NCBI GenBank assembly: GCA_951406725.2
Contig: OX597819.1
Span: 18,042,001 to 18,106,000 of the forward strand
DNA from: Octopus vulgaris
Taxonomy: Eukaryota
DNA length: 64,000 nt
Direction: 5' to 3'
This document shows, one piece after another, positions 25,170-51,374 of the stretch. The notes beneath the pieces are model-generated. The model worked only from the letters and a program-made list of their open reading frames with translations, had not been told where the DNA came from and did no database searches. The translations under genes and the position numbers were made by a program. Position 1 is the first letter of the stretch. Each line of letters starts with the position of its first letter.

Positions 25170-25403
25170 TCACTGTGCACTCACATAGAACGCCTGCTTG
25201 AAAACGCAATACCAATGGATTTTCAGGAAAACAAACACACACGTTCCTTTTTTTCTCTCCTTGTTTTTTTTCTGTGTACCTTTCTGTAGATGAGCGTAAA
25301 CTCGAAACGTAAAATACTTTTTTCTATTCCTGAGCGTTATACTAATACATCTGTTTCTTTTGTACACCACATGTCTTCGTCTTTTGTTTTTTTCGTAAAC
25401 GTT

Positions 25404-26267: not shown

Positions 26268-28733
26268 TTCTTTCTAGTTTCAGGTCAGAGCTGCGGCCAT
26301 GCTGATGCACTGCCGTTTTACACTGTTATTACGACGAACCTCGTCTAATATGTGGCACTTGGTGAAGAATGGAGTTTGATATAGCTACTCTCATTTGCAC
26401 CTCATGCCGTGAGGTAGGTTCATCTGGGACTCTTGACAGAAAGATGTCCAGCTTTGATTTAAAAACCGCTACATCTACTTTGTGCAAGTTCCTCAGACTC
26501 TTTGGGATAATATTAAAAAGCTGTGGGCCCTTGAAACCCAGGCTGTTGCAGAAGCTGGTCCTGAAGCGTGATGGCATTGCTGGGATCTTTGGCACTATGC
26601 AGTGTCGTCCCGTTCTAGCATTGGTGTAGCTTACAATGCCAAAATTTGGCACAATTCCTTCCAGGATCTTCCAGACATATATTACTGTATACCTCTCCCG
26701 TCTTCTCTCCAGGGAGTAGAGCCTTAGCTGTTTCAACCTTTCCCAGTAGCTGAGCTGTTGCAAAGAGATGATCTTCTTTGTGAATCTTCTCTGGATTGCT
26801 TCAAGGTCCGCTGTTAATTTTACACTGGTGGGTGACCATAGCTGTGAGCAGTAATCCAGGCGACTGAGGACGAATGTCCGCCAGAGGACCATCATGGTTT
26901 CCTTATCTCTGGTTCTGAATGTTCTTAGGATCCACCCAGCCAGTCGTCTGCACTTTGTCGCCATCCTGGTAATGTGCACTTGGAAAGAGGTATCATCACT
27001 CATGTCGATACCCAGGTCCCTCACAGACTTAGGCTCTGGGATTGAAATTCCCTGTGGACCGGTGTATCCTGTAAGTTTAATATTCAGTTTTGGATGCTAG
27101 TAGCGCAGGGCCTGGAATTTTTCAGCATTAAACTGCATATTATTATCCTCAGCCCATCTGTAGTTTGAGTCCAACTCCTGCTGCAGGTGTGCAGCATCGC
27201 TGGGGTTCTGTTTTTTCTGCGAGACTTTCGTATCGTCTGCATAGGGGGCCAGAGTGGCTATCCGGGTATTTGAGGGCATTTCTGAGAGGGCCAATATAAA
27301 AAGCAGTGGTCCCAAGACAGTGCCCTGTGGAACACCGCTCACTATTTGTGTGTTCATTGAGGTGGCTCCATTAACCACTTCTGCCTGACTCCTATCTTTC
27401 AGGAAGTCATGCAACTACACTCCAAGTTTCCAGCTATGCCGAGGTCACGTAGTTTGTAGCATATCATACCATGATCCACCTTGTCAAAAGCTTTTGCAAA
27501 ATCAAGGTAGATTACGTCCACATTTGATTTGTTGAGTAACTGCCTCAACACCCAGTCATAATGCTGTAAGAGCTGGGTCAGGTAGCTCCTACCTGGTCGA
27601 AAACCATGCTGGGTATCACTCAGCAAGTTATTTTCCTCAAGGAATGCGATTAGTTTCTTTCTGACTATCCGTTCCATGACTTTGCTGATGTGTGAAGTCA
27701 GAGAGATAGGCCTATATTTTTTGGCATCTGCTCTACTTACCCCTTTATGTATTGGGCATATTATTCCCTCCTGCAGCTTGCTTGGCAGTTTGCCATTCGC
27801 AAGAAAGCTCTGGAAGAGAATCTTGAGGGGTTTTGACAGGGCATGCTTACACGCTTTGAGGAGGATGGCTGGAAAACCATCTGGACCAGCAGCTGAGTTT
27901 GTGTCCACTTCATCTATGGCTAGTAGGACATCTTTTTCGCTAATGTCAATACATTCTATTGTAACCGCCTCGCTGATTATAGGTGAGGCAGCAAAGAAGT
28001 CCACTGGTTCGTTCACTTGTCTGTGTTCCAACGGGGTGGTAAAGACACTTTTGAACTGGTCATTCAGCATCTCACTGATCATAGTTGGACTGTCTGTGAG
28101 GGAGCCATCCTTTTGGAGGAGGGGTCCTATCTTGTAGTGCACTGAGACTGTTTCTTTCGCGTAATGAAAGAAGGCCTTTGGGTTTGATTTAATGTTTTTT
28201 ATAACCTAGGCTTCTTTGTCTGCTTTCTCCTTCACCTAGGATTGTTGCAGCCTTTTTTCGATCTCCATCAGTGTTGTTTTTAGGCGGGACGTTTCGCTAC
28301 TTTTGGGATGTTGGTTGAGACGATTTGCAACCTTCGTCCGTCGTCTCATGAGGATCTTCCCGTCTGTTGGAATCTTGACCCTTTGTGTTTGGCCTTGTGC
28401 TCTGGGACATATTTCTGGCATACGGCTTGCACAGAAGACATGAAACATTCTAGTTTCATGTCAATGTCTGGTGTGGAGAGACATTCCGGCCAGTCCTCTC
28501 TGAGGATGTCTTTTTGGATCGATTTCCAATCTGCTTTGTGGAAGTTCAGATTGGAGAGATTTCGGGTGCTTCCTTTAGGCTGTATGTCTCGGGTTACTTT
28601 CGGCCCAAACATAGATAGCTCTATTATGTTGTGATCCGAAACTGATGTCGGTGTCACTTTCACATCATGAATGATGTCCATATTGTTCGTGAAGCAGAAA
28701 TCCAGAATGTTATTCGCCCTAGTTGGCTTGAGT
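26268..28733 (-). mobile_element. CR1-group LINE ORF2, 5'-truncated, with few disablements
   Basis: Endonuclease C-terminus (PTRANNILDFCF...SDHNII); RT motifs YRPISLTSHISKVMERI, QHGFRPGRS, YLDFAKAFDKVDH, GVPQGTVLGPLLF, YADD, RDLGI; CR1-type C-terminus SRLDYCSQLWSP...YWERLKQLRLYSLERRRER. Split into ORFs 28346-28681, 27399-28142, 27097-27414 and 26329-27024; (TA)n on both flanks. Confidence 0.93.
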
Positions 28734-36266: not shown

Positions 36267-39032
36267 TGTTGTGGTGGGAGTTACGACACCCCCTTGCGAG
36301 AGATAGACTCGTCCCAGTAAAGTATAAATAGTAACGATCTGAATGAGTTAGGGGTTCAGAGTTCGGAGTCGAGTGAAGTTCGTGTTAGCTCGCAGTGAAG
36401 TCGGAATATGTCGGTTGGTTAGTTCACAAGGAATATTGATCGTTGGTCCGTAAAGAGGTTTGTTAGTTGGTTACATTGTTTTTACTGTTGTCTGGTAATC
36501 TTCTTTATTGTACGTAACAAGTTACGTTACAACATCTGGCGGCGAGAGGGTTTCGAAGCTCACGTAGGTTATTTAACAAATTGTTTGCGATACACCTTGT
36601 TAAATACTGGAAGACCTGTTAGCGTCCATAGTACAGTTGCAAAATCAACAACAAGAGTAGCAACAGGAGTTGCAGAAACAACTATTGCAGCAACAACTAC
36701 AACAACATCAACAATTATTGGAGCTATATTCTAAGAAGTCCAGAAACGAGTTAAGTTCGTTTTCGCCAGATGGCGTATCGAACTTGGTTAATGAATTCAG
36801 TTATATCCCAGAGGTGGGTAAAACTTTTGCATCGTATTACAGAAGATACGATGAGATTTTTAAGCAAGATTACAAATCATGATCGGACGAACAAAAAGTG
36901 AGATTGTTAATGCTAAAATTAGCTCCGTTAAAGCATAAACGTTCATTACCCCCCACCCAAGTGAAGAAATTTGTTTTAAAGAAATAATAAAATTACTGTC
37001 TAACATACTCGGTGATAAAACCTCTATTTCACACTCGAATGGAGTGTTGGAATATAACGAAAAAAAAAAAAAAAGAATGATGATTTCATTCCATACCCAG
37101 GAACAGTCAACAGGATGTGTGAAAGTTTTAAACTAAAAAACTTAAACCTGCGATGTTCGAGTGATTTAATTTCGTACAAGGCCTTACAGAAAGCAAAAAT
37201 ACAGAAATTTTGGCAAGAAAGAGTTCTTTCTAAATTGGAATGAGCGTTCTCAGATCTAACCTTACACTCCATGGCAGAAGAATGCCAAAGGATGGTAAAC
37301 ATGAAAAATGATGTAGAAAGAATTCAAGAAAATGATTCATCAAAAACACATTAGGAGCTCATGTCCTAATACATGTTATAGATATAGGAGCATACATTTC
37401 AGAAAAGATCAAAAACCTTACAGTTGCAAAAGAATTGGTCACAAGAGTTCACACTGCAGAACAAGTTTTCGGAGGTCAAACGTTAAAAATACTAGAGCAC
37501 TCTCAGCAAAAACAAAATTCTACTCACAAATAAGAAAATTCCTACACGTAAAAATAAATGGAATACATATTAAATTTCAACTGGATACTGGAGGTGGTAT
37601 TTCAATTATAAATATGGACGCATGGAAGAAAATAGTGAAACATATGTTGAGAAAAGCACCGAAATCTGCACGTAGCATGACAGGCAACAAATTACATTTC
37701 ATAGGCAAAATGTGGACTAATGTAAAGCGAAAATCTTCTTTGTTAAAAATGCAACCGATTTCTTTGGTACGGATTGGTTAGAATTATTCGATGTATGGAA
37801 CCTCCCCATAAATCTCTGTTGTAAAAACTTAAATAATTGCTCCTCTAAAAATAATTCGCCTAAAGAGTTAAATGGAAAATTAAAAATGTGTTTCCCCAGT
37901 ACTCTCGGACAAACTATGTCTATGCACAATGGCTAAGAGCCCATGGTCCCAAGATACATATCGACTACGCTGGACCAGTGAACGGCGCATACTATCTAAC
38001 GGTTGTGGATAGCTATACAAAGAGGCCAGAGGTATGCAGATGTAATAAACACACAGCAAAGACAACAGCAAAGTCCCTACTTGAAGCTTTTGCTCGATGC
38101 GGTTTTCCAGACATGTTAGTTTGAGATAATGAAACACAATTCACGGGATATGAATTAAGAAATGTCTGCAAACTACATGCCATAAAGCACTTCTTTACAC
38201 CTGCCTACCCTCCGAGGTCAAACGGGTAGGCGGAAACATTTGTCGATACATTCAAAAGAGCTCTAAAAAAAGCTAGAAATGAGCTTGATAATGACGAGGC
38301 ACCAACGAAATTTTTGCGAGTTTATACAATAACGCCAAAACGAAATACCAATTCAAGAAATTCCCCAGCAGAGTTAAGGTTCGCGCGTAAAATTAAATTG
38401 ATCTTCGATAAATTATTTCCAAGTAAAAATACATATAAAAGATTTACAAAAAATATTACAAAGCTATTCGAAGTAGGAGATAAAGTTTATTTTAAAAATT
38501 ACAAAAGTGGTTGGGAGGATGGCTGTGTAATGAAAATATGAGATAACCTGATGTGTGTAATTACAGGACAGCGTTCGAAACATAAGAGACACCTAAACCA
38601 GTTAAAGATAGGACATCCAGAAAAATGAAGGGTAATGGCAATGAAAGATTTCTATGTTGTGTTTGAAGATACAACAGATGAAAAAAAAAAGACGGAGAAG
38701 TGCTGGAAAGAACAAAAATATAAGAAATTCCAATTTATCAGATTAGTCAATATCTCAAAAGGGTAGGCTTTGTGATGGGGTACGACGCTCCCTTGCGAGA
38801 GATAGACTGGTCCGAGTAAAGTATATACAGCTACGATCCGAGTGTGTTAAAAATTCCCAGTTCGGGGATGAGAGAAGTTTGTGTTAATTCGCAGTAAAGT
38901 TGGAAGGTGACTGTTGGTTTGTTCACAAGGAATATTGTTTGTTGTTTCATAAAGAGGTTTTTTAGTTCATTACAATGTTTTACTGTTGTCTGGTTATCTT
39001 AATTATAGTACGAAACAAATTATGATATAGCA
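36267..39032 (+). mobile_element. Gypsy/Ty3 LTR retrotransposon, internally deleted (no RT/RNase H seen), degenerate
   Basis: LTRs 36267-36534 (TG...CA) and ~38768-39032; PBS-like TGGCGGCGAG at 36537; purine tract aaaagggtagg before the 3' LTR. Gag FSPDGVSNLVNEFSYIPE...YYRRYDEIF, CCHC remnants, protease FQLDTGG, integrase IHIDYAGPV...VVDSYTKRPEV...PRSNG. Confidence 0.9.
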
Positions 39033-40769: not shown

Positions 40770-41676
40770 AATGTCTAATGGAAATTAAAATTATTTTTAT
40801 GCATTCAAACTAATGTACATTCAAACTAATTAAATATTATTTTACAGAATAACAGAATTAAAATTTCTTTGATTAAATCCTTCTCTAACATGGAAGTTAT
40901 CCAAATAGAATTTGAGGCACATGGTGCTTTATGAGTGCAAATAAGCAATCGCAAATCCCGAGCTGACATTTGCTCTTCTCTCCATTCGCACGAACTCATT
41001 TCACCCTTTTTGGTTAGACTTGTGACTGGTGATGAAAGATGGATCTTCTATCGAAATGTTAAATGTCATAAACAGTGGATTGGTAAAAGAGAAAAATCTC
41101 AACCCCAACTGAGAAGGGAACTTCATGGGAAAAGGTTCTTCTCTCTATCTGGTGGGATTGCAAAGGCGGAATTCACTTTGAAATGTTACCACCTAATGCA
41201 ACATTCAATCTTCAAGTCTACTGTCAGCAATTAGAGCGTTTGAACCAAGCTTTGAAGAAAGAAAGACCCGCTTTAGCGAATCGAAAAGGAGTGATATTTC
41301 ATCAGGACAATGCACGATCCCACACTGCAACGATCATATCACAGAAGATTAAAGAGCTTGGCTGGGAAAAATTCCTCATCCACCTTATTCTCCCGACCTT
41401 GCTCCTTCAGACTACCATTTATTTCGTAGTTTACAGAATCATTTGGGGGACATAACTTTCGGAAGACAGCAGGAGGTCGAAACTGACATTTCAGAGTTCT
41501 TCGCTTTGAAAGCAAGAGTTTTACATTGATGGGATTAAAAAGCTCGTAAATAGATGGAAGGAAGTCATAGATAATCAGGGAAAGTACATTGATGATTAAA
41601 TTTCAATTAAATATAACATTTGATCACTTGTTTTCTTTACTGAAAATTCGGACAGATCTTATCGTATGACCTGATA
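40770..41676 (+). mobile_element. mariner (DD34D) transposon remnant, internally deleted and frameshifted
   Basis: LVTGDERWIFY, VLLSIWWD, VIFHQDNARSH, PHPPYSPDLAPSDYHLF and NRWKEVIDNQGKYIDD* motifs; probable right TIR ending ...cttatcgtatgacctgaTA. Left TIR not found. Confidence 0.9.
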
Positions 41677-48719: not shown

Positions 48720-49335
48720 TTTCGTCCTATTTCTCCTGTCTGACCACCTCTGTCTGGCATTCGCTATGATTGATCGCTAGCCACTGAACCATTTAAAAAA
48801 AAAATTTTCTCTTGCTCTGCTTACTTCTGTCTTTCTTTTCTGTTGAAGACCGTAGGCTCGAAACGTAAAAGACTTTTCCACCTACCCGAGTGTTAAACTA
48901 ATTCATCTGTTTGTTGCTTATACACCCGTCATTTTTTTTCTTGTAAATTCCAACATACCGTCACTTCCCACATCTCGCCTTTCCAGCGTTCATAAATTTT
49001 TACATCTTTTGGCTTCACAGCCCTCACCGTTTGTTTTTTGTGTCATGTTCTCACTGTCCTGTTTTTGTTACCACTTTCACCCTCTGCAAAAAAACATTAC
49101 TTAATTTGTGTTGCGGGAAGGATTGTTTCAACGAAGTCGCGTCTTGTCCTTACCTTCGGAACGTGAAGATATGGAACGGGGTCAACTGATGAAGGGGAAT
49201 GTCCTTTATATTGCCTGTCTCGTTTCTCTGTTTGTTTTTTTTTTCGTTGTTCGAAAAAAGTTCCTTTTCTATGTTTTTGTTTTTATGCTTTCGTTTTCTT
49301 ATTGTGTGTACGTTTTTGATGTCCTGCACCCATAT
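48720..49335 (+). mobile_element. two adjacent short PLE-like non-autonomous repeats
   Basis: 48720-48955 is homologous to 25170-25408. 48960-49335 is homologous to the reverse complement of ~20850-21200 (gggaagga...ccttcggaacgt...ctgatgaagggga...tttgatgtcctgcac). Confidence 0.55.
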
Positions 49336-49383
49336 ATGCACGTATATATATATAGGTATGTACATAAATGTATGTATATATGA

Positions 49384-49529
49384 ATATATTTATATATTAA
49401 TTATATTATTATATGATCAAACACATACCTTTCCAAGTAAAGTATATATATATATATATATATATATGTACTTTACTTGGAAAGGGATGTGTTTGATCAT
49501 ATAATAATATAATTAATATATAAATATAT
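49384..49529. repeat. near-perfect palindrome centred on (TA)n
   Basis: atatttatatattaattatattattatatgatcaaacacatacctttccaagtaaagta-(TA)n-tactttacttggaaagggatgtgtttgatcatataataatataattaatatataaatat. Confidence 0.92.
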
Positions 49530-49595
49530 GCATATATACATACATATATATATATATGCATATATACATACATATATATACATATATATATATAC

Positions 49596-49648
<53 letters not shown>

Positions 49649-49893
49649 GCAATTAAGGACAACCTCTTAATAAGGAATCTTAATAAGAAATGATCAGGTA
49701 GATAGCGTGAAAAACCTCATAAGAGAAAAATTTCGAAAATAATTCTTTCTTATTTAACATATTAATTTATATATAGAGGGCATTATTATACATAGATGCC
49801 ACACGCTAAGAGGGACAAAAAGTCATTTCTACCAAAAATTTTACTAATCCTACCGAATGCAATCTTTCAAAGCAAGACATTTAAAAAATATAT

Positions 49894-49942
49894 AGACTTG
49901 TAACACATGTAATTTCGTACTTACGTACTCGTCAGCAAGCCT
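49894..49942 (-). ncRNA. type I hammerhead ribozyme, copy 1 (helix III weakened)
   Basis: Minus strand aggcttg CTGACGA gtac gtaa gtac GAAA ttacatgtgt TA caagtct. Confidence 0.7.
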
Positions 49943-50352
49943 GAACGTATCATAAATAAACGACCCTGTCTCGTCAAAGCCAAGCAGCTAACTGCTTAAC
50001 TTCAACGGAGCACATGGGGGAGTTTACATATATTACATCCGGTAAATGGCAGGCTTCTTCGAATTGCATTTCGGATAGGAAAAGTTTTTTCGGAATAAAA
50101 TTATTTAGCAATTAAGGACAACCTCTTAATAAGGAATCTTAATAAGAAATTATCAGGTAGATAGCGTGAAAAACCTCATAAGAGAAAAATTTCGAAAATA
50201 ATTCTTTCTTATTTAACATAGTAATTTATATATAGAGGGCATTATTATACATAGATGCCACACGCTAAGAGGGACAAAAAGTCATTTCTACCAAAAATTT
50301 TACTAATCCTACCGAATGCAATCTTTCAAAGCAAGACATTTAAAAAATATAT

Positions 50353-50401
50353 AGACTTGTATCACATGTGATTTCGTACTTACGTACTCGTCAGCAAGCC
50401 T
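50353..50401 (-). ncRNA. type I hammerhead ribozyme, copy 2 (intact)
   Basis: Minus strand aggcttg CTGACGA gtac gtaa gtac GAAA tcacatgtga TA caagtct; complete core and all three helices. Confidence 0.88.
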
Positions 50402-50564
50402 GAACGTATCATAAATAAACGACCCTGTCTCGTCAAAGCAAAGCAGCTAACTGCTTAACTTCAACGGAGCACATGAGGGAGTTTACATATATTACATCCG
50501 GTTGAAGTTAAGCAGTTAGCTGCTTGGCTTTGAGGAGACAGGGTCGTTTATTTATGATACGTTC

Positions 50565-50613
50565 AGGCTTGCTGACGAGTACGTAAGTACGAAATCACAT
50601 GTGATACAAGTCT
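50565..50613 (+). ncRNA. type I hammerhead ribozyme, copy 3 (intact, opposite strand)
   Basis: Helix I aggcttg/caagtct; CUGACGA at 50572-50578; helix II gtac/gtac with a GUAA loop; GAAA at 50591-50594; palindromic helix III tcacatgtga; predicted cleavage after AUA at 50606. Confidence 0.88.
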
Positions 50614-50733
50614 ATATATTTTTTAAATGTCTTGCTTTGAAAGATTGCATTCGGTAGGATTAGTAAAATTTTTGGTAGAAATGACTTTTTGTCCCTCTTA
50701 GCGTGTGGCATCTATGTATAATAATGCCCTCTC

Positions 50734-50809
<76 letters not shown>

Positions 50810-51374
50810 ATATATGTATATATATATAAATGTGAAGACCTTTCCAACTGTAAAGCAGGAGCTTAAAATTCTCTAGTAAAAACAACATTGAATGACTTAA
50901 GAGTTAAACATTTCATTAAAGGAAAATTGAATCTTACTCTACTAGCAATGTGAATAACAGAAAGTGAAAAAATATCTACATATCTGAAATATCTGAAAGA
51001 ACAGAGAACGTCATGGCTTGTAGTATTTATACATTAGCAGAAATGTAACAATTTCATATATCTCTGCATCTCTGAAGGTCATCAAAGTAGCAATTAGACG
51101 CAGTCCCGTGCTTGTCGGTGGAGTATTCTCTGCCAAATCGTTTGGATTTGTGCAAATGGGATGTCCTGCCTCTAAATTTTCCCGAATTAGACCAATGTGG
51201 TATTTCACACAACTGTCAATAGATAAGAGTCATGCTATAACAAAACAAATGGTCTATGGCACATATAATTGACATAGGGATAGCCCCAAGTGAATGTCGT
51301 AAGCATTGGACATTTTAGGGGTGTGTTTTCCATAGACATTCTGCATTCTGTAATGCGTGTGTACATTGTCTACC

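Follow-up and report, generated by a model that had tools for sequence, protein, structure and literature searches.

A dispersed 459-nt hammerhead ribozyme repeat in the Octopus vulgaris genome with insertions of the Penelope type

Animal non-LTR retrozymes are described, in the parts of the source paper considered here, as non-coding head-to-tail units of a few hundred bases with low GC content, each bearing one type I hammerhead ribozyme and giving a self-paired monomer, in genomes where Penelope-like elements (PLEs) co-exist (Cervera and de la Pena 2020, PMC7229834). The same paper demonstrates retrozyme circles in coral, mussel and axolotl, and proposes PLEs as the mobilisers. A preprint makes the case that retrozymes derive from PLEs as non-autonomous elements (Li, Clavereau and Pollet 2026, 10.64898/2026.07.22.740005); in its parts considered here, one of nine frog retrozyme dimers cleaved, and no mollusc is named among the sampled classes. 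The mobiliser of animal retrozymes has so far been argued from co-occurrence and from terminal-repeat similarity. The 459-nt family described here adds insertion footprints on a protein-less ribozyme unit, namely the two-end rule of PLEs, inverted arms and microsatellite targeting.

Insertions of endonuclease-bearing PLEs comprise, according to parts of two papers, a partial tandem, an inverted 5'-truncated copy and a one-sided tail (PMC8557442, PMC3846280). Circular templates have been proposed (PMC4209133), as has self-priming on an antisense template for the head-to-head repeats (PMC3846280), again going by parts of these papers. The lizard PLE Poseidon of Anolis, studied in vitro, has two internal starts, extends both strands and is predicted to give a dimer; it uses uncleaved RNA, and its hammerhead is dispensable (PMC11167929).

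The octopus family shares each of the retrozyme features listed above, and its assignment to the animal non-LTR retrozymes, judged by head-to-tail units, one type I hammerhead per unit and the lack of coding, appears well supported. It differs from the retrozymes of PMC7229834, as far as that paper was considered, in several respects: the unit of 459 nt lies slightly above the 150-450 bp first described; it occurs as dispersed insertions of at most 2.4 units, not as long arrays; and the octopus insertions document inverted arms, two fixed ends and targeting of (TA)n, whereas "inverted" and "microsatellite" each have 0 occurrences in the main text of that paper. No sequence link to a PLE terminal repeat was found for the octopus family among the three PLE families compared. 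With canonical PLE insertions, as given in parts of PMC8557442 and PMC3846280, it has in common the head-to-head inverted arm, the tail at one end, the microsatellite target and the hammerhead upstream of the ends; it differs in having no ORF and a tail of about 115-125 nt, as compared with 30-40 nt in those papers. As in Poseidon, two fixed starts that would be internal to the RNA lie downstream of the hammerhead, the target is AT-rich and both strands would be extended. The octopus starts resemble the target in being TA-rich, whereas those of the lizard are located in an AC-rich stem-loop that differs from its target, and the lizard enzyme shows no strand preference of start site in vitro, whereas the genomic octopus copies pair one start (site A) with the other (site B) (PMC11167929).

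No description of the 459-nt family was found in the literature searched, which consisted largely of open papers, repeat databases being outside its scope. Searches with three short family motifs in the supplement of PMC8557442, and with two of them in that of PMC13282606, gave no match; the latter paper makes no mention of ribozymes in the parts considered. The retrozyme class is already known, and the 459-nt family appears to be a new member of it, whose PLE footprints are unusually clear and whose tail is long; the gain is therefore mechanistic, not categorical.

Architecture of the locus and its hammerheads

The window, i.e., the whole stretch of 64 kb that was analysed, holds the element between a (TA)n-rich left target microsatellite (49516-49642) and a right (TA)n target microsatellite (50734-50828), both strandless features from the tandem-repeat call. 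The long arm (49643-50502), in which the ribozyme sense is the minus strand, was called as a tandem repeat of period 459 with about 1.9 copies; it comprises 1.87 head-to-tail units and has its 3' end at site A. The short arm, an inverted-repeat call of 240 nt on the plus strand (50501-50740), has its 3' end at site B, and the 5' ends of both arms meet head-to-head at 50501-50502 with a 2-nt overlap. These boundaries confirm the original prediction of a 459-bp head-to-tail unit and an inverted partial copy within (TA)n. Exactly six substitutions (49692, 49762, 49903, 49911, 49981 and 50017) separate unit 1 from unit 2 (+459), the inverted arm is 99% complementary to unit 2 and 98% to unit 1, and each of the three unit copies carries private substitutions. 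End A of the long arm (49643-49650, minus strand, unit positions about 453-7) adjoins (TA)n and would be the outer start of reverse transcription. Site B is present internally at 50218-50227 and 49759-49768 (minus strand, unit positions 117-126), as a TA-rich stretch following a hairpin. Within the A-B tail, a 24-nt motif at 49703-49726, with a second copy at 50162-50185 (minus strand), is a candidate protein-recognition element. In agreement with the claim that the unit is non-coding, ATG ORFs within the element are 38 codons long at most, and no PLE protein match was obtained in the 64-kb window. The element at this locus is protein-less, without an RT/GIY-YIG ORF between its repeats, and hence is not an autonomous PLE.

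Other repeats lie in the same window. A palindrome at 49333-49580, to the left of the element, has 124-bp arms and is centred on (TA)n; similar sequence follows PLE ends at two other loci (L221 and L233), and the palindrome probably represents another repeat family. Matches to RVT_1, aspartyl protease (below cut-off) and Transposase_1 at 27402-28205 (minus strand), 37317-37778 (plus strand) and 41087-41452 (plus strand) belong to unrelated decayed transposons.

When both strands of the 64-kb window were scanned in full, the three type I hammerhead cores noted beforehand were recovered, and no further ones. Copy 1 (49894-49942, minus strand) would cleave between 49901 and 49900, copy 2 (50353-50401, minus strand) between 50360 and 50359, and copy 3 (50565-50613, plus strand) between 50606 and 50607; copies 2 and 3 are intact. 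The 459-nt distance between the two minus-strand sites follows directly from the sequence, and gives a predicted monomer at 49901-50359 (minus strand). Each unit has one ribozyme in one polarity. Since the plus-strand core is the same motif in the inverted copy, it does not indicate an RNA with two polarities, and the earlier reading of hammerheads on both strands fails in this sense. Viroid-like RNAs are small and self-paired, with hammerheads in both polarities; the octopus unit differs from such RNAs in its single polarity, its integration in the genome and its retrotransposon footprints.

When copies 2 and 3 were folded in isolation, the hammerhead was the minimum-energy structure, at -9.6 kcal/mol with a z of only -0.57, and in longer context it was 0.2-2.2 kcal/mol worse than an alternative fold. 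Copy 1 has the two helix III changes that had been pointed out (49903 and 49911), and its minimum-energy fold in isolation is not the hammerhead; sequence inspection places a U-U mismatch beside its core in monomer and dimer folds alike. Because helix III of copy 1 is damaged, the locus is probably a crippled or weak donor, from which efficient release of a unit monomer is doubtful; the predicted release from a read-through transcript would accordingly be weakened to a probably inefficient one. The perfect helix III palindrome, together with N7=C, is private to this locus and common to all three copies, whereas the family norm differs in one loop base and is only near-palindromic. The palindromic helix III noted previously thus stands for copies 2 and 3 of this locus and not for the family. 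The proposed hammerhead scan recovered the core by pattern, whereas Rfam gave no hammerhead at gathering level, the best hit being Hammerhead_3 with E=0.33 and 16 bits as compared with a gathering score of 48.5. Self-pairing of the monomer reached z -6.8 as a linear molecule; as a circle, it reached -10, as compared with -3.8 for the antisense and -0.6 and +0.6 for the flanks (25 shuffles each).

A dispersed family and its ribozyme

The genome searched comprises 2.8 Gb in 227 contigs. The unit search returned at least 108 matches, from 40 of 2201 candidates scored, and a 37-nt core pattern gave 167 matches as compared with 0 for the reversed control; the hammerhead cores are therefore not a product of chance. 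The anatomy counts rest on 124 loci fetched, from which 22 duplicates were removed to leave 102 distinct loci, most of them picked by length or core pattern, so that one pass of the cleavage site is forced and core conservation is inflated. The 459-nt unit is a dispersed non-coding family, and the suggestion to look for further genomic copies was answered by these 167 intact-core matches and 102 loci. The 459-nt period and both fixed ends are found again at independent loci on many contigs, which, with the exact six substitutions between units, upholds the earlier argument against an assembly duplication. Within subfamilies, loci differ by 2.2-2.7% on average in a star-like pattern, and the overall median is 5.4%.

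The family belongs to a wider group of related closed units of about 460-495 nt that are about 65% alike. The 24-nt tail motif is common to families with only this level of similarity, and gave 925 exact matches, 30 of which were read, as compared with 0 for the control. Assembled contigs of eight runs, seven presumed to be RNA and one of unspecified type, contain family variants over much of the unit; one contig spans the unit junction and one spans the core, while strand, ends and circles are not readable from them.

Twelve core positions are near-invariant over about 100 loci, which were partly core-selected, and N7 takes all four bases. As many loci were selected by core, covariation provides stronger evidence than core invariance. 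For the 26 distinct variants found among 94 copies, pairing held in 95.6% of cells, three of 15 pairs were changed on both sides, and helices I and II co-vary. None of 500 shuffles scored as high, and slid controls reached 19-41%; relatedness inflates this score. In the wider group, helices I and II have their letters swapped, with pairing, core and helix III preserved. These data indicate that the hammerhead is under selection across subfamilies, and the ribozyme looks functional at the family level.

In several copies of the older 495-nt family (L142-L170), an extended helix II has a U-U pair at its base. Further hammerhead motifs, unrelated and with a palindromic helix III, were observed near TA tracts at L236:1349 and 4534, L246:3607, L311 and L298, which suggests that the genome may hold many more ribozyme-bearing repeat families.

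Anatomy of the insertions and the template

At the 102 loci, 156 of 161 arms, read in the ribozyme sense, end at site A (72) or site B (84), located about 255 nt and about 135 nt downstream of the cleavage site, respectively; the two lie about 120 nt apart, and the stretch between them forms the tail of about 115-125 nt. Arm ends run into TA in 149 of the 161 cases, and the exact start points are blurred because the sequence there is TA-rich. Where target-site duplication was looked at, the arm ends were found embedded in (TA)n. The 56 head-to-head pairs consist of 50 A+B, three A+A, no B+B and three with an off-site end (p=3e-12 for A+B pairing as compared with random pairing), and most of the junctions have an overlap or a filler of only some bases. 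Arms shorter than 45 nt were left uncounted, and several "single" B arms carry such short A stubs. The family thus displays the hallmarks of PLE-type insertion, i.e., an inverted 5'-truncated head-to-head copy, two fixed 3' ends, a one-sided tail and a microsatellite target. The original prediction of a non-autonomous, ribozyme-bearing retroelement is supported by the two-end rule, the (TA)n targets and the lack of an ORF.

Within the 50 A+B pairs, the B arm reaches further upstream in 31 and the A arm in 16, and the two arms do not overlap in 10. Since either arm may reach further and 10 pairs are non-overlapping, the arms are not, as a rule, fold-back copies of one another, suggesting two priming events and not fold-back. 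Nor do the arm-reach counts favour, in this family, the self-priming from an antisense template that is proposed in the part of PMC3846280 considered. Within-locus divergence was 1.26% between arms and 1.36% between tandem units, and 39 of 40 arm pairs were within 4% of each other, as compared with 34% of random pairs; this low divergence argues that both arms were copied from the same template variant. The main set showed no enrichment of symmetric junctions (6 of 56 within 15 nt, p=0.18). Copies at 12 loci selected by tail alone and at five from the motif sample are often short and end at unit positions 124-247, short of the cleavage site; many of these tail-selected short copies have symmetric junctions at unit positions 177-247, and none ends at the cleavage site.

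More than 470 nt are present in 54 of the 161 arms, all of which return to the 459-nt unit and never enter an ORF; 18 arms span two cores, and three exceed two units, the longest having 1087 nt (up to 2.4 units). One arm stop fell within 5 nt of the cleavage site in 150 passes, where 3.8 were expected, and in the subsets less affected by locus choice, one of 27 shorter arms and none of 20 second passes stopped there. Because the arms run through the cleavage site and for more than one unit, a cleaved linear monomer would not be the usual template, leaving a circle or an uncleaved multimer.

The reading that we prefer, with a probability of about 0.72, is that the locus belongs to a dispersed, protein-less 459-nt hammerhead family, a non-LTR retrozyme for which a PLE enzyme, probably of the Neptune type, does the copying in trans in a circle cycle. 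A copy longer than one unit would be transcribed, and its hammerheads would excise a monomer that is then ligated into a circle. The PLE enzyme would nick both strands of a (TA)n tract, with one target end priming at internal site A and the other at B on the same RNA variant. Each cDNA would extend upstream for a variable distance, past the ligated cleavage site and sometimes for more than one round, before the cDNA ends join head-to-head, in most cases with a short overlap or filler. A short repeating unit in 100-odd copies constrains the PLE mechanism in this way to two RNA-templated arms from one template variant, with no general fold-back and no stop at the ribozyme site. A broader reading, which we put forward tentatively and at somewhat below even odds, is that several or more circular ribozyme RNAs of 460-495 nt parasitise Neptune-type PLEs, and that their insertions record the PLE mechanism through two-site priming and rolling-circle copying. 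The conserved 24-nt tail motif would then be the recognition signal, and the tandem, inverted and tail structures of PLEs would be brought into one model without fold-back or antisense templates.

The strongest competitor retains the family and the PLE enzyme; in it, a tandem master array is transcribed into a linear RNA that serves as template uncleaved, with no need for a circle and with the hammerhead kept for another reason. Read-through of the cleavage site fits it equally, the lizard PLE prefers unprocessed RNA (PMC11167929), and the star-like subfamilies, 2.2-2.7% apart between loci, count in its favour. Divergence within loci was 1.28% as compared with 1.47% to the nearest locus (34 loci, p=0.10, not significant), so that this comparison does not separate a circle from an uncleaved array transcript. 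On the other hand, no array of more than 2.4 units is present among the 102 loci, and no locus has more than two same-strand cores among the first 100 of the 167 core matches listed; arrays could only become shorter if there were no circle. Locus-private variants are common to all copies of a locus, both here and at L180, and the compensatory changes in the hammerhead imply a role in copying. We therefore regard an uncleaved array as improbable, at roughly one chance in six.

It is distinctly less probable that the copies derive, as truncated pieces of its terminal repeat (pLTR), from an autonomous PLE that escaped sampling or has since been lost. Their architecture is canonical for PLEs (PMC8557442, PMC3846280, in the parts considered), and the sample is limited to 102 family loci and 30 of the 925 tail-motif sites. 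Against this reading, however, the 54 longer arms all lead back into the unit and not into an ORF, 15 single arms with non-TA 5' flanks have no common continuation, ATG ORFs in the element do not go beyond 38 codons, and the related families are also closed units of 460-495 nt. No PLE ORF was contiguous with the unit at the 89 loci tested, nor at 17 further loci, one of which had a separate fragment nearby. A local duplication, fold-back or assembly error after a simple insertion, which the microsatellite-rich region with its other palindromes and the symmetric junctions of some short insertions might suggest, is already largely refuted by the recurrence of period and ends at independent loci on many contigs, by the 10 of 50 A+B pairs in which non-overlapping arms cannot be copies of each other, and by the private substitutions of the three copies.

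Penelope-like elements as candidate mobilisers

A GIY-YIG search of the genome, in which 150 of 6136 candidates were scored, together with protein searches revealed two intact PLE families of 781 and 775 aa, with RT and, at the C terminus, GIY-YIG domains; a third PLE family is older and abundant. Both intact families have a CX2-5CxxC linker, which the part of PMC8557442 considered ascribes to Neptune and Nematis elements. They insert in (TA)n, follow the one-tail rule in 8 of 8 inverted pairs (6/6 and 2/2), and have tails about 30-40 nt long. In the 775-aa family, a hammerhead-like motif lies 132-139 nt upstream of the inner end, a distance comparable with the 123-132 nt from cleavage site to B in most variants of the 459-nt family. 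On the basis of these sequence features, the most likely mobiliser of the 459-nt family would be a Neptune-type PLE. With a predicted 459-nt RNA and intact PLE ORFs in the same genome, the mechanism is testable with the existing in vitro assay.

No convincing match to the 459-nt unit was found in the two intact families or in the older third one, the three compared out of a sampled PLE diversity. As to the question raised beforehand of whether the unit is merely the terminal repeat of an autonomous PLE, it is not that of either young intact family. A 65% antisense match over 133 AT-rich bases between the unit and one PLE end was judged to be due to chance. Copies of the intact families differ by only about 0.6% and 0.1%, as compared with about 1.3% within loci of the 459-nt family. 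The predicted recent activity is qualified in that the family, with copies of one locus about 1.3% apart, is older than the two intact PLEs.

The 781-aa family (L091:930-6172, protein at L091:2745-5090) is likewise young and has an upstream ORF and a 40-nt tail, with no canonical hammerhead core near its end. The 775-aa family (L231:2637-4964) is very young, with copies 99.6-100% identical and at least 150 places listed; core position 4 of its hammerhead-like motif is C in 40-odd young copies and the canonical U in three older ones. In the window, 48733-48950 and 25249-25390 (both plus strand) are 3' end fragments of the abundant older PLE family, and contain a minimal hammerhead-like motif that lacks the canonical base at the first core position.

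Head-to-head chimeras with a PLE were found at three loci in the older families and at none in the 459-nt family. At L285:2745-5400 (= L147), L079:264-580 and L153:1220-1926, arms of older related families meet a 5'-truncated copy of the older PLE head-to-head, with no TA spacer in between. A possible explanation is co-integration of two RNAs in one event; if this is true, the chimeras would name the mobiliser of the older families. At L145:1265-1934 and L142:1919-1950, pieces of the older PLE are directly joined to the 3' side of older-family arms, and these joins, which lie near one recurring sequence, are possibly template switches.
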